In this document: positions 5,158-64,000 of the stretch, in pieces
Numbering within the stretch: the stretch's first letter is position 1
Layout of the letters: each line of letters starts with the position of its first letter
Assembly (NCBI GenBank): GCA_018220985.1
Contig: JAAOXS010000021.1
Coordinates: 24,274 to 88,273, forward strand
Length of the DNA: 64,000 bases
Direction: 5' to 3'
Source: Nanobdellota archaeon
Lineage (GTDB): Archaea; Nanobdellota; Nanobdellia; PEZQ01
Translations under genes and position numbers: made by a program
Notes under the pieces: generated by a model
Seen by the model: the letters and a program-made list of their open reading frames with translations, nothing else
The model's database searches: none
Told to the model about the DNA's origin: nothing

Positions 5158-5227
5158 TTTTCTTTTTTTTACCGGACAAGGTTAGATATGCTTTTTAATT
5201 CATAAAAGTTTTTTGCTTATAATAAAT

Positions 5228-7372: not shown

Positions 7373-7379
7373 TAATGTA

Positions 7380-8063: not shown

Positions 8064-8098
8064 AACTTTTAAAAACGCACAACTAATTACTTTTTTAC

Positions 8099-9178: not shown

Positions 9179-10060
9179 ATGCTCGAGAAAGAATTCTCAA
9201 AAGCCTGGAAATACTATTTTGAAAATTACAAGAAACTAACAGTAATACCAATAATTCTTGTTTTAATAATGGTAAGCTCATTAGGTTACTCTAAAATCAC
9301 TACAGGAGAATTCTTTCAAAAAGACGTGAGCGTGAAAGGAGGTTATACAGCAACAATAACTCTTAACCAAGAAATAAACTTACAAGAATTAACGCAACAA
9401 CTCGGAAACCCTGAAATACGACTTGTAAAAGACACATTACGAATAAACATTCAAGGATACGAAATACTAAGCGAACAAGAACTTGTAAGCACTGAAATAA
9501 TAACTCTTTTCCAAGAAATTTATGGGATAACCCTCACTAATGATGATGTTTCAATAGGCTTTCAAAGCGCTGCAATAGCCAAAACATTTTTTGAACAAGC
9601 AACAAAAGCACTGCTATTAGCATTTTTATTAATGGGTGGAGTTGTTTTTTACTATTTCAGAAAACCTGCACCGTCAATTTCTATAATACTATCAACATTT
9701 CTTGACGTGATATGCATCCTCGGCGCAATGAATATTCTTGGAATACAAGTTTCAACAGCGTCAATAGGAGCATTACTAATGATTGTAGGATACTCAACAG
9801 ACAGTGACATACTATTATCAACAAACATTTTGAAAAGAAAAGACAAACCATTAAGTGAAAGAATGCTAAGAGCATTCAAAACAGAACTAACCGTTGACAT
9901 GGCAGCGTTTGTGGTTTTCGCAACAATGTTCTTATTATCAAATGTGGTTATGATAAAAGAAATAGCATTAATATTATTATTTGGAATACTGTTCGATTTG
10001 ATTAACACATGGTTTGGAACAGCTGCGCTCCAACGAATTCTGGTGGTGGAGAAAAAATGA
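9179..10060 (+). CDS. secF: protein-export membrane protein SecF
   Basis: Contains DVSVKGGYTATITL and MIVGYSTDSDILLSTNILKRK, with six predicted TM segments. It is adjacent and translationally coupled (ATGA) to secD. Confidence 0.75.
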   Translation: MLEKEFSKAWKYYFENYKKLTVIPIILVLIMVSSLGYSKITTGEFFQKDVSVKGGYTATITLNQEINLQELTQQLGNPEIRLVKDTLRINIQGYEILSEQELVSTEIITLFQEIYGITLTNDDVSIGFQSAAIAKTFFEQATKALLLAFLLMGGVVFYYFRKPAPSISIILSTFLDVICILGAMNILGIQVSTASIGALLMIVGYSTDSDILLSTNILKRKDKPLSERMLRAFKTELTVDMAAFVVFATMFLLSNVVMIKEIALILLFGILFDLINTWFGTAALQRILVVEKK

Positions 10061-25412: not shown

Positions 25413-25611
25413 CGTCACCTAAACTCTCACTGGACACGTCAGGCACTGAAGAACTTACATTCACGCCAGCACTGGATGATAAATCCGGCAAATCAGTATT
25501 AACTCCAACACCTAACTCGCTTGAAGGAACACTGCCCGTTGACTCTTCCTCCTGACTAACGCAACCGCTTAAAAATAACACGCCTAAAAACAAAAACACT
25601 AGCTTCTTCAT
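25405..25611 (-). CDS. small secreted lipoprotein-like protein (68 aa)
   Basis: MKKLVFLFLGVLFLSGCVSQ is a signal peptide plus lipobox-like motif. The rest is Ser/Val-rich. 4-bp overlap with the upstream gene. Confidence 0.5.
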   Translation of the reverse strand: MKKLVFLFLGVLFLSGCVSQEEESTGSVPSSELGVGVNTDLPDLSSSAGVNVSSSVPDVSSESLGDAI

Positions 25612-27608
25612 ATCACATCACTACTCCCACTACTCGTTTTACCTAATTGATTCATTTTCATAAACACTTTCTCAGGATTACAATTTTCTTTAACCCAATC
25701 ATAATCCCCAACGCCAAACTTGGAATTGCACTCGTCAACCGCGCCCTTAACAACAACTAACTCAACCTTATAAGCGGACATGTCACTACCCGTTTTTTCA
25801 TAATTATCAATAACTGTTTCAGAACCACTATACATGTGAGTTAACAATTGAGTGAACAAAACACTAGCAGCAAGCCTTTCAAAATTTTTGAAACGCGACT
25901 GAAGTGAAACTTGTAAACCCTCACTCTTAACATCATCACCCTGACGAAGAGCAATTTTTAACTCTTCAACAACACTTTCAATACTGATTAACTCTCCATC
26001 AACAATCGAAGAATTTAACACAATACCCTTCTCAGCGAACTCCTGCTTAACTTTAACAATATTACCACGCATAACACGAATATAATTATTAGCCAACTCT
26101 TCAACAAGAACAACCTGCACTTCACGCATAATCTTCTGAACCCTGCTTTCCAAACTCTTAACTTTTTCCCGCAACTCTTCAGAAGAAGCGGAATCCTGCA
26201 AATCACGCAACTCACTAATCATAACATCAATCTCATCAAGTTTATCATCAATTTTTTTAGAATCAATTGTTAAATTATGACCTTCACGTGCTTTACGAAT
26301 CTCTTCATTAAAATTTTCACGAACACGACTCTTAATTTTTTCACCATAAGCAACATATAACTTTATCTGTGCCTTCACAAACAACCGTTCAAAACGAGGC
26401 TGCAAATCATTCTCAAAACTTTTCGCAGTTTCATCATCCTCAAAAGACTGGCTTTGCTCAACAGCGCTTTTACCTGCTAAAACACCCAATTCACTGACTA
26501 ACTCATTTAACTCTAATTCAATACTTGAAAAATCAACAACAACACCCTCTTTCTCAGCATTCGCTTTCATCTTCACTAACTCCTCACGCACTCTTTCAGA
26601 AAAAGTATTAGCCATAACAACATAAACTTTGTAAACCATACGACGCTTCAACTCCAAATACATACTAACAACTTCACTTTCAAAACGAAGCTTAATATCC
26701 TCCATGTTCTCAGAAGTAAGCTCGTTTTTTAACTCTTCAATATTAGCTTCAACACTACTAAGATATTCCTCATCATCAGAAAAATCAACACTCAAACCCT
26801 GCTTCTGAATTTCACTCTTAACCTCTTCAAACTTACTTCTAACCTCATTCATAACAGCATCAGCTTGCTCTAACATAAAATTAACCCAATACTCCATTCC
26901 ACTCTCATGAACTTCACTAACAATTTCATCAAAATTTTCCTGAACACTAAGCCTTAAAACCTGCCAATCCGTGAAAAAATCTGATTTCTCAAATACCGGC
27001 GCAATTTCTCCACGCCTATTAGAAAAAATTGAAACCTTACCACTAATGCTTGAAACACTAACACCTCTACTTTCAAGACTGCTTGTTAAATTATTAAGAA
27101 ACGCGACCTCCCAATCAAAATGTTGCAAAGACAATTCTTTCATCAAACTCTTAGCCTCCTCAAACCTGGTTTCAAAACTGTTTTGCATAAGACTAACAGC
27201 CACGTTAGAACCGCTCCTCGCTTCACTTCTTTCAATTTCGTCAACAATAACTAAACGCGAACTTGATTTGAAATCATCTTTTAAAACGCTAAACTCATCC
27301 CACAAATTTTCATAACCATCATCAGTAGAATCAACTTCGCCAATGTAAACAGCTAACTCAGCGTGCAAGTCAACAAAATTATCATAAATTTTTTCCAAAG
27401 AAGAAACATCATAATTCTTAACTTCCGCGAACTCAATAATTTTCAACATTTTAATTTCAAAAGTGTCAAGCTCAACACTGTTAAAACCATAACGAACACT
27501 TAACCAATCCTGAGTAGCTGTTTTCTCAAAACCACTAACAACATCATAATCATCAGCGAAAACAGGAACTGCTAATAACAATACAAAAAATAAAACTCTA
27601 CCCATCAT
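25608..27608 (-). CDS. secreted coiled-coil repeat protein (666 aa)
   Basis: Has the signal peptide MMGRVLFFVLLLAVPVFA. About five modules of roughly 95-100 aa recur, each with ...AEKEG(V/I)V(V/L)..SSI...EL... and ...F.RL....Q.KL.V... Confidence 0.6.
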   Translation of the reverse strand: MMGRVLFFVLLLAVPVFADDYDVVSGFEKTATQDWLSVRYGFNSVELDTFEIKMLKIIEFAEVKNYDVSSLEKIYDNFVDLHAELAVYIGEVDSTDDGYENLWDEFSVLKDDFKSSSRLVIVDEIERSEARSGSNVAVSLMQNSFETRFEEAKSLMKELSLQHFDWEVAFLNNLTSSLESRGVSVSSISGKVSIFSNRRGEIAPVFEKSDFFTDWQVLRLSVQENFDEIVSEVHESGMEYWVNFMLEQADAVMNEVRSKFEEVKSEIQKQGLSVDFSDDEEYLSSVEANIEELKNELTSENMEDIKLRFESEVVSMYLELKRRMVYKVYVVMANTFSERVREELVKMKANAEKEGVVVDFSSIELELNELVSELGVLAGKSAVEQSQSFEDDETAKSFENDLQPRFERLFVKAQIKLYVAYGEKIKSRVRENFNEEIRKAREGHNLTIDSKKIDDKLDEIDVMISELRDLQDSASSEELREKVKSLESRVQKIMREVQVVLVEELANNYIRVMRGNIVKVKQEFAEKGIVLNSSIVDGELISIESVVEELKIALRQGDDVKSEGLQVSLQSRFKNFERLAASVLFTQLLTHMYSGSETVIDNYEKTGSDMSAYKVELVVVKGAVDECNSKFGVGDYDWVKENCNPEKVFMKMNQLGKTSSGSSDVI

Positions 27609-47658: not shown

Positions 47659-50600
47659 ATGGGGAGAAGAGCAATACTAACAACTTTAGTAATACTTGCT
47701 CTACTACCTGTTGTAATAAACGAAGTAAAAGCGGAAACATGTACAACAGACAGTGACTGTTCTAATTACACGTACTGCGATGCAGACGCGTGTAATGGAC
47801 GAATAACAGGAATATGCGACACATCAATAAGTGAATGCGCTTGCTGCATTACTGACGGAGACTGTTCTTCAGGATACACTTGTTCAACTGAAGGTTATTG
47901 CTACGACAATAGTAATTATTGTGGTGACGGAACCTGCCAGGATGAAGAAGACTGTGAACAATGCCCTAGTGATTGCGGAACTTGCAGTGTAGCATCTGTT
48001 TGCGGCGACGGAGTATGCGACGCTGACGAAGATGCAACAAACAATTTCTGCGAAGCAGACTGTACTTATACAACAATTGGAACGGACGTGTGCGGTAACG
48101 AAATTTGCGAAGGAAGCGAAAACTGCGATAACTGTTACGTAGACTGTTGCGAAGATAATACAATAACTGTAGAATGCGGTAATGGAATCTGCGAAGACGG
48201 AGAAGACTGCGGAAGTTGCTCTACGGACTGTTGGTGTGACTGGGAACAGGAACAGCAACAAAAAATAGACGCTTACAAAGCAACATTAATCTTAACTTCA
48301 GAAGAGCAAACACTTGCAAGCACAATAATAAACTCTTTGAAAGCAGTTCATACAGCAGCAACAGCATACATTTCAAGCCCTTCAGGAACAACAGCGTACA
48401 ACCTTGCGTACCAGCAAAGATTGAAAGAACAATCTTTTTGGGATTTAGAAAAAAATTATGCGGGAACAACGCTTAAAAAATCAGGAGAATACGCAATACT
48501 AAACTATGGCTCTGGAAGAGTAAACGCGTGGGAAGACGAATTCGGAAACTTCCAAATCAACGGACTGGACATCATAGAAGGTTCAGGAATAAGATTTGGC
48601 GCGCACATATGGTACAATGACTGGGAAAACAAATACGGAATTGGAATGTGGGTTGACTGGGATGATAACGCCAGAAACTATGAAGAAAACATTAAGAACG
48701 GGTGGATGGACGGTGAAGACGTTGCAAGACAAGCTCAAGCAGCTGAAGACGTTAAAGAAATAATTGCAACATTCACAATCACAGACGACAATAAAGAAAT
48801 CGCAAATGAACTAATAAATTACATGGACACAGTTTACGACCTTGCAAACGAATTTACATTAAACTCTGATAAAATCTACAAATTACAATACGAAGCAGAA
48901 CTACTAAATGCAAGAATGAACGGCGTAGCCGAAGGACTAAGCTGCAACGACGTTAACGAAGTTTCAACATACATTCTCGTCTACTCAAAAGGAAGTGTAG
49001 AAGTATGGGACGACGAATTCGGAGGAAAAACACTTGCACAACACAAAAGACTACTTGACACAGACTACGTTAAACTCGAAATTAACGCTGGCGGATGCGA
49101 CGATTGGAGTGAAAGAGGATGGATGGGAACCAACTTACAATGGAGCAGAACCGTAACAGAAAACGAAAATTACAGAACAGCAATAACGAACGCGAGGAAA
49201 TCAGCTTGGAGAGAAGCTGAAGCACTAAGACAAAGATACATGGTCTTAGAAGCAAAAAAACTTTACACGTTCACAGTTGAAGAAGAAAACATAGCGAAAG
49301 AAATAATCGAAAAACTCAACAAGTTCAAAGAAGAAATAAAAGAATTCGAAGCAGGAAAAGTAACAGCATACAAACTACACTACGACAGCATACTACTAAC
49401 CTCAGAACTTGAAGGATACTCATGGGCATACCCTGAAATCGCAAAAGGCATAGGAGAATACGTACTATTAAACGGACCTGGAATTCCAGATGTTTGGAAA
49501 GATGAATTCGGAGACATAGAACTAGGACACAACTTAAGAGTTCACTTTGGAGAAAACATAGAATTTAACTTAAACAGATGGTGCGACGAATGGAGAGACT
49601 TCTGCGGATTTAACTCATGGATGCAATGGGGGCAACTAAGAGAAGACTACAGAGACGACATAAAAAAAGCTGAAAGAGACGGATGGAGAGAAGCTGAAAG
49701 AAAAAAACGAAAAACACTTGCTGACAAATTTAGAAAAGAATTGCAAGGAGAAATAGAAGACGTTTACTCATCAGCAATAAAATCATTCGTATCAAAAGCA
49801 AAAAATTTCATGGAAGGCGGAGCAACAGCTTACGATGTTGAAATGACAAGACTTGAAGCATCATACTTACTGCAAAAAAACATTGACGAACAAAAAAGAG
49901 ACTTCATAATGGTCCTAGACTTAGGAGAAGACGTTCCACCACCAGAAGCATGGCTTGACTGGGAAACAGGAGAAATCCACATAGGCGGCTGGAGAGAACT
50001 TGTACTAACATCCAAAGACGGTAAAGAAGATGTTATTGCAGGAATGGACACATGGTGCGATGATTGGGATGGATTCTGCGGAGGAAACATTTGGATGAAC
50101 TGGCCTGAATGGGACAGAATAAAAACAGACATTCACCGCGCGAACAACGACTTTTGGAGACAGAAACGTGAAGAAGAGATTAAACCAATGCTCAGTGAAA
50201 TAATCAGTAAAAAAACAACTTACTCAAGCAAAGACCAAACACTAATCAACGAATTATCTGACTTAATAGAAACAGTAGAAGAACTTGGTGAAAACTATGA
50301 CACGCTAGGTGTTGAAAACTTTCAATACAGTATCTTAGTTAAGAGAGATGTCATAAACGATAAACTAATTACTGCACAAGACGGAAGCTTAATAGAAATT
50401 GCAGTTGCAGAAGCAGAAGGATACCATGATTATGATGACTGGATGCAAAGACTTTATGGAGTAGCAGTTTACACAGGAGAAAAAATTGACTTAGTAATAA
50501 GATTTTACGAAAAATTCACACCATTCTTCCTTGAAGCAATTGAAAAAACACAAGGATCAGAATTCGCAATAGAAATAGAAATAGTTTGGAAAGAATGGCA

Positions 50601-51966
50601 AGAAGGCATGGAAAAATCCATTGAAAACGCTTACGAAAAATACGAAAAAGAACAAAGCGGGGTAAGATTAACAAAACTTGTTGAACAACGTGAAAAAATA
50701 ATTTCAGAAGTTGACAACATAGAAACAAAAGTTAACTCTTACGAAAACAATGAGATAAGCCTAAGTCAACTAAGAAAATACGTGAACAGTATATACTATA
50801 AAATACAAGCCTACGACCAAGAAGTAGCTTATTACGCTGCAATGTCTGGACAAGAATTCCCAACATTCGAATTTGTAAACGTAAAAATAAACACGGAACA
50901 CGTTAAAATGGAATTATACGAGAAAGATTTTGAATACAGATTTGGAGGCGGAATTGGAGTATTCCAAGCAAAAACGTACAACAACGACCAAGAAAGAGAA
51001 TACGAATTAGAATTCGCACCAACAAATGTTGAAACAACAAAAGTTGTGAAACAAACTTCATCAGATTCATTTATTCAAGAAGAATATAATGAACAAGGAT
51101 TTGAAGAATTCACAGGAAACTTTATAGCAGTAACAGGCAGACCAATACAACCAATAACCACAGATGTGAAAGCAATAAGTTCAACAGCAGTTTCAACAAC
51201 GCTCGCTAAAGGAGATGTGCAAGACACTGAAATTGAAATCTTTGACGAAGACGTAGCTCGAGAAATAGAATTCGAGAAACAAAAAATTGTTGAAGAAAGA
51301 TACGAAGACATAAGCATGTTCAGAGAGCAAGAAATGGAAACTAAATCAATTAACAAAATAATCAACAAAAAGAAAGGTTACAGCGGAGAAAGAATAATAA
51401 TTAAAGGAATTAAGCCAAGACTTAAACTCAGCACTCAAATGACTGATACAGAAATAATGCGCTTAGCGGAAGAACTGAAAACGAAATGGAGCGAAGCAGC
51501 AGAACTAGGATACATTGACGACGCAGTATACAACATGAACATGCATATAGATAACTTTCCAGCACTGCAAGAAGCAATAACTTCTTGGGGAGATACAGCA
51601 CTATCCTTAAAACTAAACTATAAAGAAAACTCTGTTTTCGAATTCTCATTCAAAACAGAAGATGGATACATAGGATGGGTTAAGTATGGAATAGCTGAAA
51701 ACGCTGGAAGCGGAAGTGACAACATATACATAGAATTAGACTTTGAATCGTTACTACGACTAAGAAATTGGTGGGAAGACAAACTCAAAAACGCTGAAGG
51801 AATAATGGACGTAATAGGGGCTGTACCAGGATTTTTAGGTAACATGATTGGAATGCTTATGAACGGAGAAATAGTAATACAACCATTCGGTTCAATTTCA
51901 AAAATACCTCAATTCCTAAGCGTATTCTTCGAAGGAATAGTTCACACAACAGGAGTAGAAATATAA
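47659..51966 (+). CDS. giant secreted repeat protein (1435 aa): Cys-rich modules plus Trp-rich repeats
   Basis: Has the signal peptide MGRRAILTTLVILALLPVVINEVKA. Four CG(D/N)GxC..(E/D)(D/N)C..C..DC modules are followed by four or more repeats of about 160 aa, each containing W.DEFG...W.D/W..G/W....W. Confidence 0.7.
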   Translation: MGRRAILTTLVILALLPVVINEVKAETCTTDSDCSNYTYCDADACNGRITGICDTSISECACCITDGDCSSGYTCSTEGYCYDNSNYCGDGTCQDEEDCEQCPSDCGTCSVASVCGDGVCDADEDATNNFCEADCTYTTIGTDVCGNEICEGSENCDNCYVDCCEDNTITVECGNGICEDGEDCGSCSTDCWCDWEQEQQQKIDAYKATLILTSEEQTLASTIINSLKAVHTAATAYISSPSGTTAYNLAYQQRLKEQSFWDLEKNYAGTTLKKSGEYAILNYGSGRVNAWEDEFGNFQINGLDIIEGSGIRFGAHIWYNDWENKYGIGMWVDWDDNARNYEENIKNGWMDGEDVARQAQAAEDVKEIIATFTITDDNKEIANELINYMDTVYDLANEFTLNSDKIYKLQYEAELLNARMNGVAEGLSCNDVNEVSTYILVYSKGSVEVWDDEFGGKTLAQHKRLLDTDYVKLEINAGGCDDWSERGWMGTNLQWSRTVTENENYRTAITNARKSAWREAEALRQRYMVLEAKKLYTFTVEEENIAKEIIEKLNKFKEEIKEFEAGKVTAYKLHYDSILLTSELEGYSWAYPEIAKGIGEYVLLNGPGIPDVWKDEFGDIELGHNLRVHFGENIEFNLNRWCDEWRDFCGFNSWMQWGQLREDYRDDIKKAERDGWREAERKKRKTLADKFRKELQGEIEDVYSSAIKSFVSKAKNFMEGGATAYDVEMTRLEASYLLQKNIDEQKRDFIMVLDLGEDVPPPEAWLDWETGEIHIGGWRELVLTSKDGKEDVIAGMDTWCDDWDGFCGGNIWMNWPEWDRIKTDIHRANNDFWRQKREEEIKPMLSEIISKKTTYSSKDQTLINELSDLIETVEELGENYDTLGVENFQYSILVKRDVINDKLITAQDGSLIEIAVAEAEGYHDYDDWMQRLYGVAVYTGEKIDLVIRFYEKFTPFFLEAIEKTQGSEFAIEIEIVWKEWQEGMEKSIENAYEKYEKEQSGVRLTKLVEQREKIISEVDNIETKVNSYENNEISLSQLRKYVNSIYYKIQAYDQEVAYYAAMSGQEFPTFEFVNVKINTEHVKMELYEKDFEYRFGGGIGVFQAKTYNNDQEREYELEFAPTNVETTKVVKQTSSDSFIQEEYNEQGFEEFTGNFIAVTGRPIQPITTDVKAISSTAVSTTLAKGDVQDTEIEIFDEDVAREIEFEKQKIVEERYEDISMFREQEMETKSINKIINKKKGYSGERIIIKGIKPRLKLSTQMTDTEIMRLAEELKTKWSEAAELGYIDDAVYNMNMHIDNFPALQEAITSWGDTALSLKLNYKENSVFEFSFKTEDGYIGWVKYGIAENAGSGSDNIYIELDFESLLRLRNWWEDKLKNAEGIMDVIGAVPGFLGNMIGMLMNGEIVIQPFGSISKIPQFLSVFFEGIVHTTGVEI

Positions 51967-53889: not shown

Positions 53890-55386
53890 TTACTTAACAC
53901 GCCACTTAACACCACTATCAGTGTCCTCTAATTCAACACCCGCTTTCTTGAGTGCTGTGCGAATATCATCACTCGTAGCGTAATCCTTTTTAGAACGCGC
54001 TTCCACGCGAAGAGAAATTAACTGCTCCATTAAACCATCAATTTTGTTTTTCTTTTTTAGAGAACCACTTACTTTCTTAACTAACTCTTTCCAACTTAAA
54101 GTAACTTTAACACTAGAACCGCTTGTAACACCAATAACTATTTCCTTATCCAATCTTAAACCAAGAACTCTTAACAATTCCTTTACTGTCTCAACTGATT
54201 TTTCAAGAATTGACTTCTTATTACCCAAACTTTGAGAAACCTTTTTCAAAAAAAGCATTGTAACATCAACAGCTTTTGGAGTGTTTAAATCATCATCCAT
54301 AGCTTTCTCAAAACTAACTCTGTACTCCCTAATCCACTTATTCAAACTCTCGCTTTTACCGCCAGTGCTCTCCTGAACTCGTTCAAAAACTCTGTAAACG
54401 CGCAGAAGCAACGCTTCAGAATTCCGCACGTTTGACTTGTTAAAATCAATTTGCTTACGATAATGAGAAGAAACCAATGTTAACCTTAAAGCTTCCCAAT
54501 CATACATTTTCAAAGCATCCCTAATCAACAACATATTACCAGTACTTTTACTCATCTTTTCACCATTCAAAGTCATGAAAGTAGTGTGCATCCAATAATT
54601 CGCGAAACGCTTACTAGTAGCGGCTTCACTCTGAGCAATTTCATTAGGGTGATGTAAATACAAATGATCATAACCACCACCATGAATGTCCAAAGTTTCT
54701 CCCAAATATTTCATACTCATAGCAGAACATTCCACATGCCAACCAGGTACGCCAACACTCCAAGGACTATCCCACTTCATAATTACATTAGAATCAACTT
54801 TTCGCCAAAGAGTAAAATCATTAGGATCATTTTTATTAGTGTCTGCGTGCACACGGCACTTTGATTTTTTTTGAAGAATGGGTGTTGGCGAAAGAGTGCC
54901 ATAGTCTTTAAACTTACGCACTTTAAAGTATACGTTACCATCCTTTTCATACGCGTAACCACTTTTAATAATTCGTTTTGTTAAATCAATCATTTCCTGT
55001 ACGTGTTGTGTTGCACGAGGATAAATATCAGCCCTATTCAAATTTAGCGCGTCTAAATCTTCAAAATACCTTTGAATGAATTTTTCAACAAGAGCGTACG
55101 GATCAACTTTTCTTTCCTTAGCCCTTTTCTCAATTTTATCTTCACCCTCATCAGCATCACTTGTAAGATGACCTACATCAGTGAAGTTCTGCACGTGAGT
55201 AACCTCATACCCTTTGTAACGTAAATACCTAACGAGAACATCCCAATAAGAATACGTGCGCGCATGACCCAAATGCAAATCATCATAAACTGTTTGTCCG
55301 CAAGTATAAATGGAAACCTTACCTTTATGAATTGGTTTGAAAACCTCTTTCTTACGCGATAAACTATTATAAATTTTGAAACTCAT
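53890..55386 (-). CDS. cysS: cysteinyl-tRNA synthetase
   Basis: HIGH motif DDLHLGHARTY; KMSKS motif GEKMSKSTGN; zinc-site context CGQTVY, HVEC. Confidence 0.9.
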   Translation of the reverse strand: MSFKIYNSLSRKKEVFKPIHKGKVSIYTCGQTVYDDLHLGHARTYSYWDVLVRYLRYKGYEVTHVQNFTDVGHLTSDADEGEDKIEKRAKERKVDPYALVEKFIQRYFEDLDALNLNRADIYPRATQHVQEMIDLTKRIIKSGYAYEKDGNVYFKVRKFKDYGTLSPTPILQKKSKCRVHADTNKNDPNDFTLWRKVDSNVIMKWDSPWSVGVPGWHVECSAMSMKYLGETLDIHGGGYDHLYLHHPNEIAQSEAATSKRFANYWMHTTFMTLNGEKMSKSTGNMLLIRDALKMYDWEALRLTLVSSHYRKQIDFNKSNVRNSEALLLRVYRVFERVQESTGGKSESLNKWIREYRVSFEKAMDDDLNTPKAVDVTMLFLKKVSQSLGNKKSILEKSVETVKELLRVLGLRLDKEIVIGVTSGSSVKVTLSWKELVKKVSGSLKKKNKIDGLMEQLISLRVEARSKKDYATSDDIRTALKKAGVELEDTDSGVKWRVK

Positions 55387-55431
55387 TTTATTGCACCTAA
55401 TATTTTTTTAGAATTAAGAATAGATAAATGT

Positions 55432-55461
55432 TCACTCCTTGCAGGGACAATCACTTTTCAT
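55432..55461 (-). promoter_or_regulatory. leader mini-ORF MKSDCPCKE* upstream of cysS
   Basis: Own translation: ATG AAA AGT GAT TGT CCC TGC AAG GAG TGA. It ends 45 nt upstream of the cysS ATG. The core AGTGAT-NNN-CCC-NNN is shared with the trp and val leaders. Confidence 0.5.
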
Positions 55462-55596
55462 ATTAATTTATTATAATTAACTCCTGTTCTTTAAGATTTT
55501 CTTTAAAACAAATGCTTTCTAAACTAATTTTATTACTAAATCATTAAAAAACAGCTATGGGAATCTTTAAAAAACAATAAAGCCCGAAAATTGGCT

Positions 55597-55962
55597 ATGT
55601 TAAGCGAAAATGTTGCTAATAAACTCGTAGAAGAATTAACAAAAAAGGATTCAACATACAGCTTAAGCTATGATGATTCGACAATTCTTATAAGAAATAA
55701 ATCTAATGACTTCACAGGTAACTTGAATAACTACGAACCTGAAAAACTTCTAATAAACATTAAATCCCGAAAACACCACGCAATTTTTTGGCCTCATAAT
55801 TTTCCAAAAGTACTAGAACTACCAAAACTTCCAATATACATAGTTATAGCTGATAATAACTTAACACTTGATGATATTATGATTGGTTTGAAACATACTG
55901 AAAATTTTAAAGAATTTTACCCTAAAAATGATAATAAAATAGAATATTTACGAATTAGATAA
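55597..55962 (+). CDS. hypothetical protein (121 aa)
   Basis: ORF with ATG at 55597 (the track start at 55591 is TTG). No motif recognised. Confidence 0.4.
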   Translation: MLSENVANKLVEELTKKDSTYSLSYDDSTILIRNKSNDFTGNLNNYEPEKLLINIKSRKHHAIFWPHNFPKVLELPKLPIYIVIADNNLTLDDIMIGLKHTENFKEFYPKNDNKIEYLRIR

Positions 55963-57013
55963 CTCCAAAAACCATAAGCAAACCTAAACCCAACATTAAT
56001 ACACCAGCAACTAAATGCAACAACCTTAAATTCTTCTGCCTTAACCTCTCCGCTTTCTCAGTGCTAAAACCTTTCACGAACAATAAAGTTAAGAAAACCA
56101 TCGGCGCAATAAAAATTAAATTGTACAAAATCAACAACGGAATCGAACCAAGCATGGTGGTTTTACTTGCTAATAAACCAATAATAACGATGTACGGACC
56201 GCTCGTGCAAGGAGTTAAAAAAACGCTAACAATCAAACCCGTAAAAAACGCGCCTTTAGGAGAAGTAGTTGCTTTAAGCAACCGTTTCATGTGCGGTCGC
56301 CAACTCATAGGAACTTCCATTAACACACCTTTACCATACCAAAAGAAATCCTTAATATTCAACAAACCAACAATGATTGCTAAAACTCCAACACCCTTAA
56401 AAATTATGTTAGACAAACTAAAAACTTGAATAACACTGAATAAACCAAAACCCATCAAAAAATACGCGATAAAAATTGCGCTTGCAAAAGCCAAACCTGC
56501 TTTTAAAGCAGTTTTCTTATTACCTTTTAAGAGAATAGTTGAGATAAGAATTATTAAAACAGCGAACTCGCAGGGATTAATAGAATCAAGAAACGCGCCG
56601 GCAACCAATGCTCCAAGCGTTAAAGTTGTTACACCTTCTTCCATGTAAACATTCGCTCCAGGCTCACTGCAACCTGCTACGCTATAAAAATTAATTCTTT
56701 CCTTTAATACATCATAAATGTTTGAAGAATACTCTATTACATCAGCACCAATAAAAATAATTGGCGTCGCGCTTGGAGCAAAATCATACTGTTTGGCAAG
56801 AGTTGTTAATAAATTATAATTATCTAAACTTTCACGAATATCAAACTTTTCAACAATTAAATCTGAAAACTCGCTTTCTAATTGAGCAAGCACGGGCTCA
56901 GTGGCAGCGCAATGAGAACAACCTTCCTGATAAAAATAATATAAATGTGTTTCAGCAGCTAAACTCGTTAATGGTAATAATAACACCAATACGAACAATA
57001 ATGCTCGTCTCAT
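55955..57013 (-). CDS. thioredoxin-fold / CcdA (DsbD-like) fusion, membrane thiol-disulfide electron transporter
   Basis: A signal peptide MRRALLFVLVLLLPLTSLAA is followed by a CxxC (EGCSHCAA). The CcdA-type TM core then has conserved Cys in NPCEFAV and TPCTSGP. The ATG at 57013 is preferred over the track start. Confidence 0.7.
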   Translation of the reverse strand: MRRALLFVLVLLLPLTSLAAETHLYYFYQEGCSHCAATEPVLAQLESEFSDLIVEKFDIRESLDNYNLLTTLAKQYDFAPSATPIIFIGADVIEYSSNIYDVLKERINFYSVAGCSEPGANVYMEEGVTTLTLGALVAGAFLDSINPCEFAVLIILISTILLKGNKKTALKAGLAFASAIFIAYFLMGFGLFSVIQVFSLSNIIFKGVGVLAIIVGLLNIKDFFWYGKGVLMEVPMSWRPHMKRLLKATTSPKGAFFTGLIVSVFLTPCTSGPYIVIIGLLASKTTMLGSIPLLILYNLIFIAPMVFLTLLFVKGFSTEKAERLRQKNLRLLHLVAGVLMLGLGLLMVFGVI

Positions 57014-57060
57014 GAAAAAACATTTAAACTGAAATACTATATAAACATTTGTTTCAAAAA

Positions 57061-57540
57061 ATGAAATCAATGACTTTAACTACAAAAGACTTAATGCTCT
57101 TATTTACAATTCTTTCAGGATTCATTTTCGCAGTATCATTCTCATCATATTATATTAATAATTTAATTCATGAAGGAAAAGTGTGCAGTTGTTTTATTCC
57201 AGTTCCATTACTCATAATGACTATGTCATCTCTCGGATTTTTTGTAGGTGGAATCGCATCATACTATTTCTTGCGAAGAATAATTGGTGAAAGAAAAGAA
57301 ACAAAAATCAACGCTGAAAAATCCTTAAACTTTTTGGAAGGTGATGAAAAAATTATAATAAAACAAATAATACAAAAACAAGGAGAAATCATGCAATCAT
57401 CAATTACTGGATTAACACGAGTCAGAACAACACGTGCAATTAAAAAATTAGAATCAAAACAAATTATTATCCGAGAAAAAAAAGGAATGACAAACAAAAT
57501 AATATTAGACAAACAAATAATGTCATTGTTCAAGAATTAA
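57061..57540 (+). CDS. membrane-anchored winged-HTH regulator
   Basis: Two TM helices are followed by EKIIIKQIIQKQGEIMQSSITGLTRVRTTRAIKKLESKQIIIREKKG (MarR-like wHTH). The track start at 57049 is TTG; the ATG is at 57061. Confidence 0.5.
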   Translation: MKSMTLTTKDLMLLFTILSGFIFAVSFSSYYINNLIHEGKVCSCFIPVPLLIMTMSSLGFFVGGIASYYFLRRIIGERKETKINAEKSLNFLEGDEKIIIKQIIQKQGEIMQSSITGLTRVRTTRAIKKLESKQIIIREKKGMTNKIILDKQIMSLFKN

Positions 57541-59005: not shown

Positions 59006-59076
59006 AGCCAGACCCCGGAGTTGAACCGGGTTGCACGGCTCTGCAGGCCGCTGCATAACCGTTCTGCCAGTCTGGC
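59006..59076 (-). tRNA. tRNA-Cys (anticodon GCA)
   Basis: Hand-folded cloverleaf: GCCAGAC/GTCTGGC acceptor, GCGGC-CTGCAGA-GCCGT anticodon arm, CCCGG-TTCAACT-CCGGG T arm. Confidence 0.85.
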
Positions 59077-59112: not shown

Positions 59113-60393
59113 TTAAAGGTTTGTCCTTACACCATTAGGGTAATTCTTGTGCTTTGGAAAACTAACTATAGAATCAGGCTGAAACGAGAAAACGCTTTTC
59201 CTAGCAGCGGGATTATTATTAAGAATAATTGAATCCACCCCTTTTTTATACCTATTATTATTTAGTCTGAATCTTTTAGCTAAAAACTCGTTGGCGTAAC
59301 CCACATGATGGTTTCGAACCATGAACTCCAACAATTTAGGGTGAAGTATTTGCATTGGAAATTGATTCAAATTAAGGTTGACTGTCCACAAATCTAAATC
59401 TTTGAAGTAATACCATTCAATAAATTTAGCTACTAACGGGTGCTCAAGATTTGTTAATGGCTCAAACACTTTTGCAACAGTAAAATTGTTAATGTCCACA
59501 TTAGTGTTATTAGTTATTTTTACGCTGCCAACGTTTTTCAAACCTTTATTAACTATGTTCTCAGCAGCGCTAAAATGATGACAATGAATTCTTACCTTTG
59601 TCCCTTCATCATTAGCTTCGTTTTTGTGAGTTCCACAAGAACAGCGATGATCTGACATCATTAATTTATGAAACTCAATTTTTTGAGATGGGTTTTTTAA
59701 ATCAACTTCATACTCTTCAACTTTTACACCTAATAAGCTTGGTATTTGAAAACTTCCAGCATGACCAATGAATCTTTGTTTCTTATTATTCCAACTGCTA
59801 GTGTTATCAAAAGTTATTTCTCGTAAATTTACGACTTCATTAGATTTTTTTTCATAAGCGTTCTCAAAAATTTTCATGAAATACTCTGATTCTTTTTCAC
59901 CAAACCTTTTGAAAACTTTATCAAAAATTTCTTGCTTAGAATTAGTCATAAGCGCAGCTCTAATTTCTGAACTTGGCTGGTATAGTACGCGATTTTTTTC
60001 AAATTCCCCATCGATTGTTATAAGTCGTGTTAATGAGTAACCCACAAGTTTAGTTGTGTAATACACGAAATCAGGTGCTGGATCTTTTTTTGGATGCGAG
60101 TGAATCCGGCGTAAAGTTAGGAATTCTAAATCAAACTGGTTTCCAGTTGCTTGATTGGTTGATGATAATGGAATGTTCATGTAAGGAAAAAAATTTGCTC
60201 CCCCTAATCCAAGTTTTTTTGCTCTACTAAAATAAGTATTAACAATTCTTTTAACTTCTGATTTCGGAATTGAATAAACACTTTGCTCAAGCAGGTTGGA
60301 AAGATCGTCTTGGTTTAATCTTAACTTCTGCAAACTTTCAACATCAAAAATTGAGTTGTAATACTCTTCTCTTTTGAATTCATCAACTACCAT
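59113..60393 (-). CDS. hypothetical protein with SWIM-type zinc finger (426 aa)
   Basis: CSCGTHKNEANDEGTKVRIHCHH fits the SWIM pattern CxCx(n)CxH. Confidence 0.45.
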   Translation of the reverse strand: MVVDEFKREEYYNSIFDVESLQKLRLNQDDLSNLLEQSVYSIPKSEVKRIVNTYFSRAKKLGLGGANFFPYMNIPLSSTNQATGNQFDLEFLTLRRIHSHPKKDPAPDFVYYTTKLVGYSLTRLITIDGEFEKNRVLYQPSSEIRAALMTNSKQEIFDKVFKRFGEKESEYFMKIFENAYEKKSNEVVNLREITFDNTSSWNNKKQRFIGHAGSFQIPSLLGVKVEEYEVDLKNPSQKIEFHKLMMSDHRCSCGTHKNEANDEGTKVRIHCHHFSAAENIVNKGLKNVGSVKITNNTNVDINNFTVAKVFEPLTNLEHPLVAKFIEWYYFKDLDLWTVNLNLNQFPMQILHPKLLEFMVRNHHVGYANEFLAKRFRLNNNRYKKGVDSIILNNNPAARKSVFSFQPDSIVSFPKHKNYPNGVRTNL

Positions 60394-60430: not shown

Positions 60431-61594
60431 TTAATCCCTTAACAAGAATTTTTCAAGCACTTTCTTTGCTTTAACACGCTCCTTCTGATGATTAGCCAAA
60501 TAAGAGTTCACTTTTTCAATTGCAATTGCTTTCAACTCACCAGAAAGCATATCACCATTCTTATAACTCTCATAAATTTCTTTTAACTTTTTATCATCAG
60601 GCTCGAATAAGAAATTAAGCAACTGATAAGACATGTCAACATCAGGATTACCTCCTTTTTCCCTATGCTCTTTTACAGTATCACGACCACCACTAAAAGC
60701 GCTTCCAATCTTTTTCTTAACCTCTTTCGCAGAATCAGTTGTGTAAATCGCGCTCGACGGATCTGAAGAACTCATCTTCCCACCTTCCTTCAAACCAGGC
60801 ATTAACACATTATGAATCGCGGCAGGCTTATAATAACCAAGCTTAGGCATAACATCTCGTGAAACCCTAAAATGCGGGTCCTGATCAATACCGTGAGGGA
60901 TAAGACAAGGCACATTCTTACCCTGACGAACACTCTCCAAAAAAGCAGGAACTGCCTGAAAACTCGTGTAAAAAATGCTACCAATATTCGTACTATTATT
61001 AAAACCGAAAACAGCTTTAATTGTTGAAAAAGTAATTTTTTTAGCAACACGAATAGCATTATTATACAACGTTTTCGAATAAAACGTGTCAATTAAGATT
61101 TCAGTATTTTTTGGCTTAAAACCAAGAGCGATAATGTCCAAAGCATCACTTAACGCTTGATTAGTTGTTTGCTCAAGCTCAAGATCCTGCCTGAACATGA
61201 ACTTTTCATCATCAGTCATTTGAATTACTAATTTTGCTTTGAACTTATCCTGCAACCACTTAGTGAACACGAAAGGCATTAAATGACCAAGATGCATTCG
61301 CCCACTCGGACCCCTTCCTGTGTACAAATAGAACTTCTCTTTTTTCTCGTACTTGTCAAGCAACCAGTTCAAATCACGGTGTGAAAAGAACATACCTCTA
61401 CGCAACATGAAATGAGCAGGTCCAGTGTGCTTTTCAATTCGCTTAATTAAAACATCATTAATTCGCACAGTTCCGAACTGTTTGATTAAATTATTATAAT
61501 CAATTTTACCGGACACCTCCCACGGCGTCACGACAAAACCTGTTTTATCAGTCATATTATAACTAACAAGTTCTCTTGATTTAATATTTTTCAT
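60431..61594 (-). CDS. trpS: tryptophanyl-tRNA synthetase (archaeal/eukaryotic type)
   Basis: HIGH motif GRMHLGHL; KMSKS variant GGKMSSSDP; N-terminal VTPWEV...DYNNLIKQFG. 4-bp overlap with trpB2. Confidence 0.9.
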   Translation of the reverse strand: MKNIKSRELVSYNMTDKTGFVVTPWEVSGKIDYNNLIKQFGTVRINDVLIKRIEKHTGPAHFMLRRGMFFSHRDLNWLLDKYEKKEKFYLYTGRGPSGRMHLGHLMPFVFTKWLQDKFKAKLVIQMTDDEKFMFRQDLELEQTTNQALSDALDIIALGFKPKNTEILIDTFYSKTLYNNAIRVAKKITFSTIKAVFGFNNSTNIGSIFYTSFQAVPAFLESVRQGKNVPCLIPHGIDQDPHFRVSRDVMPKLGYYKPAAIHNVLMPGLKEGGKMSSSDPSSAIYTTDSAKEVKKKIGSAFSGGRDTVKEHREKGGNPDVDMSYQLLNFLFEPDDKKLKEIYESYKNGDMLSGELKAIAIEKVNSYLANHQKERVKAKKVLEKFLLRD

Positions 61595-62850
61595 TCTAAC
61601 TCACCTCGCAAGAACTGTTCGTAACCTGTCAAGTCTAGTAACCCATGCCCGCTCAAACAAAACACTAAAACCTGATTCTTTCTTCTCTTAGCATTTTCTA
61701 TAACACTTTTTATTGCATGACAACTTTCCGGAGCAGGAATAATACCTTCAGTTTCAGCGAACAATTTTCCAGCTTCAAAAACACTTTTCTGATTATAATA
61801 CTCTGTTTTCATTAAACCATGCTCTTTTATAGCTGACAATAACGGTGCCACTCCATGATACCTTAACCCGCCTGCATGTATTGCCGGTGGTACGAACTCG
61901 CATCCAAGCGAATGCATTTTTAGCATAGGCGTTATTTTTGCAGTGTCACCAAAATCGTATTTGAACTCGCCTTTTCCCATACTCGCACAACTTTCTGGCT
62001 CTACACCAATTAATTCAGCGCCAGTATTATAGAAAGGTAATGCTATTCCTCCAAAATTACTTCCACCACCCACACAACCAATTACTGCATCCGCTTTTTC
62101 AGGCAATTGCTCTTTAGCTTCCAAACCAATTATTGATTGATGTATTAACACGTGAGTTAGCACTGAACCAAGACTATACTTGTAGTTTTCTAATTTCATG
62201 CAAGTTTCTAAAGCTTCACTTATTGCTATTCCTAAACTTCCCGGATGCTCTGGATTTTGGTCTAATAATTTTTTACCAAAACTTGTTTCTTCATTTGGGC
62301 TGGGCAGAACATGTCCGCCATAAATATTCATAATCGTTTTCCTTCCAGGTTTCTGATAATAACTACTTCTTACCATGAATACTTTACAATCCAAATCGAA
62401 TAATTTGCACGCAAGACTTAATGCACTACCCCACTGCCCAGCACCTGTTTCAGTTATTAAACCTTTCAAGCCCTCTTTCTTCGCGCTAAAAGCTTGCGCT
62501 AACGCAGTATTTAATTTATGACTTCCAGTAGGGCTCGCACCCTCATACTTATAATAAATCCTGCAATTAGTCCCAATTTTTTTTTCCAAATTCTTAGCCC
62601 TAATTAATGGCGTTGGCCTGTATTTTTTGTAGAATTCCAAAATTTTTTCGGGTATTGGAATGAACCGTTCCTTGCTGATTTCTAATTCCATACTTTCTTT
62701 TGGAAAAATTTGTTTTAATTCTTCAGGATTTATTGGTTTTTTTGTTGCAGGATTTATTGGCGGACTAACCTTGAAAGGTAAGTCTGCAGTTATGTTGTAA
62801 TAATGTTTTGGTACTTTACCAGGGACACTCAACCCTTTTATTGTTCTCAC
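61591..62850 (-). CDS. trpB2: tryptophan synthase beta-like protein, TrpB2 type
   Basis: Contains PKHYYNITADLP, the PLP-lysine motif EGASPTGSHKLNTA, GCVGGGSNFGG and GLRYHGVAP. The start is GTG at 62850 with an in-frame stop immediately upstream. No trpA is visible nearby. Confidence 0.85.
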   Translation of the reverse strand: MRTIKGLSVPGKVPKHYYNITADLPFKVSPPINPATKKPINPEELKQIFPKESMELEISKERFIPIPEKILEFYKKYRPTPLIRAKNLEKKIGTNCRIYYKYEGASPTGSHKLNTALAQAFSAKKEGLKGLITETGAGQWGSALSLACKLFDLDCKVFMVRSSYYQKPGRKTIMNIYGGHVLPSPNEETSFGKKLLDQNPEHPGSLGIAISEALETCMKLENYKYSLGSVLTHVLIHQSIIGLEAKEQLPEKADAVIGCVGGGSNFGGIALPFYNTGAELIGVEPESCASMGKGEFKYDFGDTAKITPMLKMHSLGCEFVPPAIHAGGLRYHGVAPLLSAIKEHGLMKTEYYNQKSVFEAGKLFAETEGIIPAPESCHAIKSVIENAKRRKNQVLVFCLSGHGLLDLTGYEQFLRGELE

Positions 62851-62860
62851 TAGTTTTCAT
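62816..62860 (-). promoter_or_regulatory. second, out-of-frame mini-ORF MKTSENNKRVECPW* overlapping the trpB2 start
   Basis: It starts with ATG at 62860, and SD AAGGTGA (62869-62875) ends 8 nt upstream of that ATG. It ends ...GAG TGT CCC TGG TAA, 33 nt inside trpB2. Its 5' context AAATTAATATGAAAA is identical to that of the cysS leader. Confidence 0.3.
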
Positions 62861-62903
62861 ATTAATTTTCACCTTAGAAAGAGTGTTCTCTAGCAAAATC
62901 TTA

Positions 62904-62933
62904 TCATAATTTTTGCCAGGGATAATCACTCAT
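62904..62933 (-). promoter_or_regulatory. leader mini-ORF MSDYPWQKL* upstream of trpB2-trpS
   Basis: Own translation: ATG AGT GAT TAT CCC TGG CAA AAA TTA TGA. It ends 53 nt upstream of the trpB2 start. The ATG lies about 28 nt from the centre of TTTATAAAA (62957-62965). Confidence 0.5.
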
Positions 62934-62956
62934 AAAAATAAAGTATTCAATTTTGC

Positions 62957-62965
62957 TTTATAAAA
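62957..62965 (-). promoter_or_regulatory. TATA-like box (TTTATAAAA) for the trp leader transcript
   Basis: The spacing to the leader ATG is about 28 nt, compatible with the known archaeal TATA-to-TSS distance of about 26-27 nt. Confidence 0.3.
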
Positions 62966-62977
62966 CTAACGAAAAAA

Positions 62978-62987
62978 ATTTAAAAAT
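62978..62987 (+). promoter_or_regulatory. TATA-like box (ATTTAAAAAT) for the val leader transcript
   Basis: Its centre lies about 28 nt upstream of the val leader ATG at 63011. Confidence 0.3.
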
Positions 62988-63010
62988 CAAATCATGTTTA
63001 AATTATTGTT

Positions 63011-63043
63011 ATGAATCTAAAAAGTGATCGCCCCGTACAATAG
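63011..63043 (+). promoter_or_regulatory. leader mini-ORF MNLKSDRPVQ* upstream of valS
   Basis: Own translation: ATG AAT CTA AAA AGT GAT CGC CCC GTA CAA TAG. It ends 39 nt upstream of the valS ATG. Confidence 0.5.
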
Positions 63044-63082
63044 ACCGATTACTTTATTATTCAATTTCGAGAGACTTTAGAC

Positions 63083-64000
63083 ATGACTATGGATAAGCGT
63101 TACAACGTGGAAGAAACAGAAAAGAAATGGGCGAAAAAATGGGTTGAAAACAAAACTTACGAATTCGTAGAAACCAAGAAAAACTACGTAATCGATTCCC
63201 CACCACCATACCCTTACGTATCCTTACATGCTGGGAACTTTTTTAATTTCGCTTACCAAGATTTTGTGGCACGATACAAACGACTTAGAGGATTCTCAGT
63301 ATTACACCCTTGGGGTTGGGACTGTCATGGATTACCAGCTGAAATTTTTATAGAAAAAAAATATGGGAAAACCGCTGAAAAAATAGGCATTGAAGCATTC
63401 AAAGAACTATGCGAAAAACACATATTAGAAAACATTGAAAACATTCGCGAAAACCAAGCTCAAGTAATTGGGATGAGTGTTGACTGGAGTAAACAATATG
63501 CAACAATGACTGATGATTACAAAACTCGCGTCCAAAAATCCTTTCTTGAAATGGTAAAAAAAAAATACGTTTACAGAAAAGAAGCACCCGTATCATGGTG
63601 CGTGAGTTGCCATACAGCCATTGCAGAAGCGCAAACTGATAAAATAGAAAGAGAAACCAATTTTTACCACATAAACTTACCATTAAAAAACAAAAAAGGC
63701 TCAATAACAATTGCAACAACTCGACCTGAACTAATGCCCTCATGTGTCGCGGTCTTCGTTAACCCAAAAGATGAACGTTACAAAGAATTCATAGGAGAAA
63801 TAGTTAAAATACCCTTCTTCGGACAAGAAGTTAAAATAATCGCTGACGAGAAAGCAGACCCTGAATTCGGCACTGGCGCAGTTTACCACTGCACTTTTGG
63901 AGATAAAACTGACTGGGAATGGGTTGTAAAACACAAACTGCCAATAATAAAATCAATAGAAGAAAACGGAAAACTCAACGAAAACACGAAATTTTTAAAA
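63083..64000 (+). CDS. valS: valyl-tRNA synthetase, N-terminal 306 codons (continues beyond the window)
   Basis: Own translation: MTMDKRYNVEETEKKWAKKW...VIDSPPPYPYVSLHAGNFFNFAYQDFVARYKRLRGFSVLHPWGWDCHGLP...ATTRPELMPSCVAVFVNPKDERY...ADPEFGTGAVY. This is the ValRS pattern. It is absent from the ORF track because no stop falls within the window. Confidence 0.85.
   Translation, partial: MTMDKRYNVEETEKKWAKKWVENKTYEFVETKKNYVIDSPPPYPYVSLHAGNFFNFAYQDFVARYKRLRGFSVLHPWGWDCHGLPAEIFIEKKYGKTAEKIGIEAFKELCEKHILENIENIRENQAQVIGMSVDWSKQYATMTDDYKTRVQKSFLEMVKKKYVYRKEAPVSWCVSCHTAIAEAQTDKIERETNFYHINLPLKNKKGSITIATTRPELMPSCVAVFVNPKDERYKEFIGEIVKIPFFGQEVKIIADEKADPEFGTGAVYHCTFGDKTDWEWVVKHKLPIIKSIEENGKLNENTKFLK

Follow-up and report, generated by a model that had tools for sequence, protein, structure and literature searches.

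Candidate +1 frameshift switches at cognate codons in the leaders of archaeal aminoacyl-tRNA synthetase genes

Amino-acid operons and pheST are attenuated through leader peptides (trpL, pheL and hisL), in which the ribosome senses charged tRNA at cognate codons and the outcome is a decision on transcription termination; T-boxes, structured RNAs of about 200-300 nt at Gram-positive synthetase genes, bind tRNA directly without a ribosome. To our knowledge, archaea have no T-boxes and no bacterial-type stringent response or attenuation, and how they match synthetase levels to tRNA charging is, as far as we know, largely unknown. A different kind of switch operates in prfB, whose autoregulatory +1 frameshift takes place at AGGGGG, 3 nt, CTT-T and then TGA (PMC12421855). 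Hungry-codon +1 shifts are known from yeast Ty1 (CUU-AGG-C) and from starved E. coli, and tRNAPro classically slips on CCC-N, as in the CCC_UGA of pheL and of a Listeria phage (PMC5009743, PMC8211752). Here we describe a 64,000-nt stretch (the window) of contig JAAOXS010000021.1 from a small, uncultured Nanobdellota archaeon (assembly GCA_018220985.1), in which short open reading frames (mini-ORFs) upstream of the cysteinyl-, tryptophanyl- and valyl-tRNA synthetase genes (CysRS, TrpRS and ValRS) place a codon for the cognate amino acid directly after a CCC proline codon. We are confident, on the sequence evidence, that these elements are real, translated leaders sensing the cognate codon; they are probably prfB-like programmed +1 frameshift switches whose slow A-site codon is the cognate sense codon. 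We also lean towards the broader view that, in a DPANN (Nanoarchaeota-type) clade, at least three synthetase loci are under +1 frameshift switches that would sense tRNA charging through the codon after CCC.

Mini-ORFs with the cognate codon after CCC

The window is AT-rich (GC about 33%) and carries the archaeal markers Nre and archaeal Hel308 domain 4. On both strands together, AGTGATNNNCCC (AGTGAT-NNN-CCC) has exactly three matches in the 64 kb, against a mean of 0.16 in shuffled sequences, and none of 100 shuffles gave three copies. Each copy lies inside a mini-ORF 5' of cysS, trpB2-trpS or valS. A sequence-only reading of the window had reported these three mini-ORFs, with sequences and coordinates that are all correct, and had stated that the motif is in no other intergenic region of the window, which the count bears out. 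It had also noted that the codon after CCC specifies the amino acid handled by the downstream synthetase; this holds at its three sites and now at seven of seven, including one further site in the window and three in related genomes, with a chance probability of ~7e-13 under window codon usage. The retention of CCC was rightly singled out: CCC is rare, accounting for 9% of the proline codons in the window (53/568), and its presence at all seven proline positions has P ~6e-8 under the same codon usage. The distance from ATG to AGTGAT in the window is 0, 6 or 12 nt, in steps of three, and that from AGTGAT to CCC is constant, which indicates a signal decoded in frame by the ribosome rather than a promoter element.

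The downstream CysRS (TIGR00435) and TrpRS (NF008927) score above the NCBIfam cut-offs, and the ValRS N-terminus left by the end of the window is best matched by valS models; the window CysRS is 100% identical to MBR9679344.1. No further synthetase gene was found among the large ORFs of the window, several of which have no Pfam match, in a scan of ORFs from ~280 aa upwards.

The fourth site in the window, absent from the sequence-only reading, is a second trp mini-ORF that overlaps the start of trpB2 and reads ATG AAA ACT AGT GAG AAC AAT AAA AGG GTT GAG TGT CCC TGG TAA. It is preceded by the best Shine-Dalgarno (SD) sequence of the region (AAGGTGA at 62869-62875, 9 nt upstream), and its ATG (62860), the only SD-led ATG before trpB2, is out of frame with that gene and leads to CCC TGG TAA. 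No SD-led in-frame start was found for trpB2. NCBI annotates the TrpB-like protein (MBR9679352.1, 416 aa) from a non-canonical ATA codon, P0241 beginning MKGLSVPGK; this annotation is a symptom of the missing in-frame start. The N-terminal lengths of TrpB2 homologues do not separate the start models, and the homologues are too conserved to single out members of the clade (55-60% identity among 120 best matches, including Thermotoga and Pyrococcus).

The lineage is thinly sampled. The nearest CysRS sequences are 54-55% identical to that of the window, and both of their contigs, L001 (Logan ERR14788038) and L002 (Logan SRR34261169), carry the element, which is thereby found in three assemblies, one NCBI metagenome-assembled genome (MAG) and two different Logan runs. 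L001 cysS is preceded by TTTATAAAA, a spacer of ~21 nt and ATG ATC CGT CCC TGC TGC TGA (MIRPCC), and L002 cysS by TTTTATAAAAAT, a spacer and ATG AAT GGC CCC TGT TGA (MNGPC). L001 also has valS, on the strand opposite to its cysS and encoding a ValRS 62% identical to that of the window; its leader consists of TTTATAAA, a spacer and ATG TTT AAT GGT GGT TGT CCC GTA TTC GAG TGA (MFNGGCPVFE). The seven sites were aligned on CCC, with a hexamer at positions -9 to -4 followed by a 3-nt spacer, the P site and the A site (Table 1). An in-frame ATG, CCC, the cognate codon and a stop 1-3 codons later are kept at all of them. The three leaders orthologous to those of the window (L001 cysS, L001 valS and L002 cysS) thus preserve both frame and ATG, and a motif conserved out of frame or without an ATG, the adverse outcome considered in the sequence-only reading, is not what they display.

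The peptides up to Pro differ from site to site (KSDCP, IRP, NGP, SDYP, RVECP, KSDRP and NGGCP). Among orthologues, the residues before Pro are MKSDC, MIR and MNG at cysS and MNLKSDR and MFNGGC at valS, some of them only three residues long. Since orthologous leaders encode MIRPCC, MNGPC and MFNGGCPVFE, S-D-x-P is not a conserved nascent-peptide motif, and the idea of an 'S-D-x-P' leader-peptide family has to be given up. The accompanying analogy to TnaC and SecM falls with it, because arrest peptides (TnaC, SecM, ErmCL) need a conserved peptide in the exit tunnel and the peptides before Pro vary here. Exactly 3 nt 5' of CCC, five of the seven sites carry a purine-rich hexamer, which is AGTGAT in three of them and GGTGGT or ATGATC in the other two. 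It resembles the window's own SD sequences, AGGTG (cysS, trpS and others) and GGTGAT (gene at 16783), and we read AGTGAT/GGTGGT as an SD-like sequence 3 nt 5' of a CCC-N slip site.

The +1 frame and the proposed frameshift switch

At three of the seven sites (L001 cysS, L002 cysS and window trpB2, from the CCC of trp site 2) the +1 frame is the frame of the enzyme itself. From the CCC of L001, reading in +1 gives P A A E K L K I K N S L..., in frame with CysRS. Apart from this entry, the CysRS frame offers just one start, a TTG that has no SD and lies 12 nt 3' of the P-site codon; the gene caller had to fall back on this TTG. At the remaining four sites, where the leader is not fused to the enzyme, no stop closes the +1 frame until 5 nt or less from the next start. 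It ends with a TGA overlapping the cysS ATG (ATGA) and with a TAG 2 nt 5' of the valS ATG in the window, and with a TAA abutting the valS ATG (TAAATG) in L001; from trp site 1 it runs through the ATG of mini-ORF 2 (Table 1). Shuffling the spacers gave probabilities of 0.154, 0.185, 0.180 and 0.081 for such openness at the four unfused leaders, with a joint value of ~4e-4; the single values include 0.15 for window cysS, 0.18 for trp site 1 and 0.18 for window valS. Of these four leaders, just two have an open -1 frame, and the 0-frame stops of all four lie 42-49 nt 5' of the main start (45 nt from the ATG at 55386 for the window cys mini-ORF). A geometry suited to termination-reinitiation, with a stop overlapping or abutting a start, is found in the +1 frame only, at window cysS, window valS and L001 valS. 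Termination-reinitiation coupling at overlapping or abutting stop and start codons is documented for archaea (PMC6728339, PMC10666635).

Since every site has a +1 frame that either enters the synthetase gene or reaches up to it, the arrangement points to prfB-like +1 frameshifting rather than plain stalling. The slip codon fits as well. CCC is followed by T or G at 7/7 sites, such that the codon after a +1 step is CCT or CCG, still Pro. CCC is the only proline codon that lets tRNAPro re-pair after such a step, which in a frameshift model is why this rare codon would be used. A single model of this kind would account jointly for CCC, the identity of the following codon, the early 0-frame stop, the frame relations and the missing in-frame starts.

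The val mini-ORF shares the frame of valS, and nothing but one TAG (63041-63043) interrupts that frame between the two (MNLKSDRPVQ-stop-TDYFIIQFRETLDMTMDKR), so readthrough would also yield an N-terminally extended ValRS.

Most genes of the window are leaderless, with a cTTTTAAAAa-like box ~30-35 nt 5' of the ATG; SDs (AGGTG, GGTGAT) are rare and found mainly on operon-internal genes. The 5' edge of TATA-like boxes peaks at -35 to -31 from the ATG, with 17 of 46 occurrences in that 5-nt bin. All six ATGs of first mini-ORFs have a TATA box at -30 to -34 (L002 judged by eye), and no TATA-like box was seen within 70 nt 5' of the cysS or valS ATGs. This placement, at leaderless distance from the mini-ORF ATG and not near the cysS and valS ATGs, makes it very likely that each transcript has the mini-ORF as its first cistron. 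The trp and val leaders diverge from a 77-nt spacer (window 62933-63011) with two back-to-back TATA boxes. In the L001 val leader (2445-2524, minus strand), oligo-T runs (T6, T5 and T7) lie between the shift site and valS; they could be archaeal intrinsic termination signals, in which case a transcription-linked layer of control would be possible.

From the anatomy, conservation, frames and promoter positions, all read directly in the DNA, we infer slippage, a response to charging, coupling and raised enzyme output in the following way. The transcript would start at or beside the mini-ORF ATG as a leaderless mRNA, and after 3-13 codons a peptidyl-tRNAPro would occupy CCC in the P site while the A site exposes the cognate codon (UGC/UGU for CysRS, UGG for TrpB2-TrpRS, GUA for ValRS). 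When charged cognate tRNA is plentiful, the codon would be read and translation would terminate 1-3 codons later without a useful product. When it is scarce, the A site would be empty and tRNAPro would slip +1 from CCC to CCU or CCG, probably aided by the SD-like hexamer 3 nt upstream. Translation in the +1 frame would then produce the enzyme itself at L001 cysS, L002 cysS and window trpB2; at window cysS, window valS and L001 valS, the +1 stop at the enzyme start would turn the gene on by termination-reinitiation. Trans-frame peptides under this model would include MIRPAAEKLKIK..., MKTSENNKRVECPGKVPK..., MIRPAAEKLK... and MNGPVDALK.... The trp locus has two sites in series, and its operon would be gated twice.

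The likeness to prfB lies in a slippery P-site codon, placed 3 nt after an SD-like sequence at five of the seven sites, and in an A-site codon that would be read at a rate set by the product of the regulated gene; in the proposed switch, as in prfB, the 0 frame would give a short dead-end peptide and a +1 slip would give expression (PMC12421855). The enzyme is in the +1 frame at the three fused sites. Unlike in prfB, where a stop codon is read by a protein factor and tRNALeu slips on CUU-U, the A-site codon here is a sense codon read by aminoacyl-tRNA and the slip would involve tRNAPro on CCC-U/G. The site is also only 3-13 codons from a leaderless 5' end, the host is an archaeon, and at four sites the shifted ribosome would only reach the start of a separate gene. 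The resemblance is one of mechanism and not of homology, the genes being those of CysRS, TrpB-like/TrpRS and ValRS.

As in hungry-codon shifting, a scarce aminoacyl-tRNA would empty the A site and let the P-site tRNA slip +1; the known hungry-codon and CCC-N cases, however, are incidental, serve transposons or phages, or are by-products (pheL), and none feeds back onto the charging synthetase. With attenuators the leaders share a short ORF containing the relevant codons and the use of the ribosome as a charged-tRNA sensor. They differ in having one or two cognate codons per leader, a leaderless mRNA in an archaeon and, as the proposed output, a change of frame; no terminator or antiterminator hairpins were found before the genes in the four leaders folded. 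The T-box parallel is a cognate 'specifier' codon in a synthetase leader that would report charging for homeostatic control, here without structure and with clear ORF features; a search of the whole window against Rfam gave no match at the gathering score, and relaxing the cut-off to E<=1 for the leader regions added none. In the ermC leader, ribosomes that have changed frame carry on into the intergenic spacer, which activates the gene downstream; together with antizyme and the C. elegans zip-2 upstream ORF, this leader illustrates regulatory frameshifting that senses a small molecule or an elongation defect (PMC5009743, PMC11831180). The triggers in these three are macrolide, polyamines and a general elongation block, their organisms are different ones, and none uses the cognate codon of a synthetase.

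Several points weigh against a frameshift switch. The shifted product is not the enzyme at four of the seven sites, where the link to enzyme output passes through an inferred coupling, and window cysS (AGGTG) and L001 valS (GGAGGTG) own good SDs that would allow independent translation. In L002 a second ATG, 4 nt downstream, is directly in the CysRS frame, and the shift is not strictly needed there. L002 (ATGAAT) and trp site 2 (GTTGAG) have no clear SD-like hexamer at -9 to -4. The four leaders folded do not differ significantly from shuffled sequences (z -1.95 to +1.0) and offer no convincing RNA structure for frameshifted ribosomes to open. Only three genomes carry the element, with two or three sites per amino acid, and independent evolutionary support is thin.

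Two hairpins were noted in the window, neither common to the other leaders. One, of 10 bp (AAAGTGATCG / CGATTACTTT, window 63021-63055), encloses the shift site of the val leader and would mask its SD-like hexamer; the other, of 9 bp (TGGCAAAAA / GATTTTGCTA region, 62885-62918), begins at the A-site codon of trp site 1.

Table 1. Positions of leader features and downstream genes in the window, followed by the seven sites aligned on CCC (hexamer, spacer in lower case, P site, A site).
Feature	Positions	Strand	Details
cys leader TATA-like box	55490..55495	-	CTTAAA; 5' edge 34 nt before mini-ORF ATG
cys leader mini-ORF (0 frame)	55432..55461	-	MKSDCPCKE; ATG AAA AGT GAT TGT CCC TGC AAG GAG TGA
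cys SD-like hexamer	55450..55455	-	AGTGAT; 3 nt (TGT) 5' of shift codon
cys proposed shift site	55441..55446	-	CCC TGC; CCC (P site) to CCT, Cys codon in A site
cys +1-frame ORF	55383..55445	-	P A R S E H L S I L N S K K I L G A I K, then stop
cysS (CysRS, 498 aa)	53890..55386	-	TIGR00435, 485 bits; own SD AGGTG 55394-55398
trp leader TATA box	62957..62965	-	TTTTATAAA; ~32 nt before ATG at 62933
trp mini-ORF 1	62904..62933	-	MSDYPWQKL, then stop; AGTGAT 62925-62930, CCC 62919-62921, TGG 62916-62918
trp site 1 +1 frame	62816..62920	-	34 open codons, in frame through ATG 62860; ends at site 2 TAA
trp mini-ORF 2	62816..62860	-	MKTSENNKRVECPW, then stop; CCC 62822-62824, TGG 62819-62821, TAA 62816-62818
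trpB2 (TrpB-like pyridoxal phosphate enzyme)	61591..62850	-	NF009057, 632 bits; stop overlaps trpS start by 4 nt
trpS (TrpRS, 387 aa), second gene of operon	60431..61594	-	NF008927, 499 bits; SD GAGGTGAG
val leader TATA box	62979..62986	+	TTTAAAAA; 32 nt before ATG at 63011
val mini-ORF	63011..63043	+	MNLKSDRPVQ, then stop; AGTGAT 63023-63028, CCC 63032-63034, GTA 63035-63037
val +1-frame ORF	63033..63080	+	P Y N R P I T L L F N F E R L, then stop
valS (ValRS), truncated by window end	63083..64000	+	homologues named valine--tRNA ligase
Aligned site, window cysS			AGTGAT tgt CCC TGC, then AAG GAG TGA
Aligned site, L001 cysS			ATGATC cgt CCC TGC, then TGC TGA
Aligned site, L002 cysS			ATGAAT ggc CCC TGT, then TGA
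Aligned site, window trp-1			AGTGAT tat CCC TGG, then CAA AAA TTA TGA
Aligned site, window trp-2			GTTGAG tgt CCC TGG, then TAA
Aligned site, window valS			AGTGAT cgc CCC GTA, then CAA TAG
Aligned site, L001 valS			GGTGGT tgt CCC GTA, then TTC GAG TGA

Other readings of the leaders and the place of a frameshift switch

The sequence-only reading had proposed a ribosome-mediated sensor of cognate aminoacyl-tRNA acting by stalling. The sensor part of this proposal, a translated leader in which an A-site cognate codon follows a P-site Pro (CCC), is retained here; stalling as the mode of control overlooked the +1 frame that leads into or up to the synthetase at every site. In a stall-only sensor, the paused ribosome would alter downstream expression without a change of frame, for example by opening the mRNA, as in ermC, or through transcription-translation coupling. 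Such a sensor would have the same conserved anatomy of ATG, CCC, cognate codon and nearby stop, and window cysS and valS do have their own starts ~50-60 nt downstream. Peptide bond formation and events in the A site are slow when Pro is in the P site, which also fits. We nevertheless hold stalling on its own to be rather unlikely, since it leaves unexplained why CCC is used over the common CCA or CCT at 7/7 sites and why the +1 frame is either the enzyme frame or open to the enzyme start. In L001 and L002, moreover, the stalled ribosome would cover the enzyme start (the TTG 12 nt after the P-site codon, and the ATG inside the mini-ORF, respectively), so starvation would lower synthesis, the wrong regulatory sign. 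The leaders show no structure that stands out from shuffled sequences, and the peptide is not conserved.

An ordinary upstream ORF translated in the 0 frame, which dampens the gene or is coupled to it and whose cognate codon is incidental or merely slowing, seems improbable to us. Termination-reinitiation from the 0 frame would be possible at L001 cysS, where only 2 nt separate the 0-frame TGA from the TTG start; the unfused leaders, all four with 42-49 nt between stop and main start, leave too great a distance for coupling, and cognate codons and CCC at seven of seven sites would go unexplained. A signal that is not translated at all, whether a transcription-factor site or a mini T-box-like RNA whose triplet pairs with the tRNA anticodon, is more improbable still. 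AGTGAT and CCC are conserved at the nucleotide level in the window and the triplet could pair with an anticodon, as this explanation would have it. Against it stand the in-frame ATG, the stop within 1-3 codons, the +1 continuity everywhere and the 3-nt steps of the ATG-motif distance, and a motif that lies downstream of the predicted transcription start; the leaders are only ~70 nt long, with no significant fold and no Rfam match even at E<=1. Chance resemblance combined with annotation or assembly errors at gene starts can be set aside almost entirely. AT-rich intergenic DNA is indeed rich in short ORFs and gene starts are uncertain in these assemblies, yet three motifs stand against 0.16 expected, the cognate-codon P is ~7e-13, and three independent assemblies carry the arrangement where background loci do not.

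GTGAT was also considered as part of a box C/D or K-turn, and the leader as a mini T-box that binds tRNA; the ORF features led us to drop both ideas.

A +1 frameshift switch here would belong to a known class of mechanism, with a new sensor, new target genes and a new domain of life. Full-text literature searches returned no report of a frameshift-regulated synthetase gene. A 2016 review of frameshifting (Atkins et al.) lists prfB, antizyme, the ermC leader and the incidental pheL CCC_UGA, and none of its nine mentions of 'synthetase' concerns a frameshift-regulated aminoacyl-tRNA synthetase gene (PMC5009743); a 2021 review of archaeal recoding counts a single proven example of -1 frameshifting and, for +1, none proven in a cellular gene (PMC8211752). 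If the frameshift model is true, these loci would be the first cellular genes of archaea with a regulatory +1 frameshift and, for any organism, the first example of synthetase genes under feedback by frameshifting. The switch would be a functional counterpart of the T-box that needs only the ribosome, and would show the RF2 logic invented anew around sense codons. It would amount to a compact sensor of ~30 nt, protein-free and structure-free, for any chosen aminoacyl-tRNA, a design directly usable as a synthetic charging sensor, and would explain why annotations lack proper in-frame starts (e.g. the TrpB-like protein at ATA).

Related genomes and neighbouring genes

The scan of related genomes suggested in the sequence-only reading gave a divided answer: CCC with the cognate codon was recovered in L001 and L002, and the element is absent from ~100 more distant CysRS, TrpRS and ValRS loci. 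Specifically, the leader is missing at 80 CysRS loci of species-representative genomes (38-50% identity) and in the further CysRS relatives L085, L107 and L108, a CCC-TGG leader precedes trpS in none of 18 TrpRS metagenome relatives (54-70% identity), and no leader was found in ValRS relatives at ~50% identity (L083, L084, L109 and L110). Two scans for the full signature in 1.47 Mb of relatives' loci returned only the known sites and coding-region background. L101 keeps trpB2-trpS, and its 5' end is cut off. The element looks like a young, lineage-specific invention, and comparative support is narrow for that reason.

In other DPANN genomes (Woesearchaeota, Micrarchaeota and an NCBI MAG), a tRNA-Cys gene (anticodon GCA) lies directly 5' of cysS, no more than ~10 nt from its start (L003, ~9720-9800; L005 and L007, just upstream of 10001/9046; L107, 9985-10060). 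This adjacency is a different, recurrent linkage of cysS to a tRNA; in the window, tRNA-Cys (59006-59076, minus strand) is 3.6 kb away from cysS. ValRS is called as two consecutive ORFs (e.g. 420 + 449 aa with an 11-nt gap) in three unrelated contigs (L083, 458-3081; L084, 3414-5885; L110, 42-2237), which could reflect a genuinely split enzyme, an in-frame recoded stop or a frameshift.

Near cysS the window encodes a very large protein of 1435 aa (47659-51966, plus strand) that Pfam does not match, as is also the case for other large window ORFs at 745-1995, 1992-3953, 3976-5157, 25608-27608, 55955-57070 and 59113-60393. In L001 a 1367-aa protein with a MopE-type copper-binding match directly adjoins cysS (4539-8642, minus strand); a large protein near cysS in both the window and L001 suggests conserved synteny.

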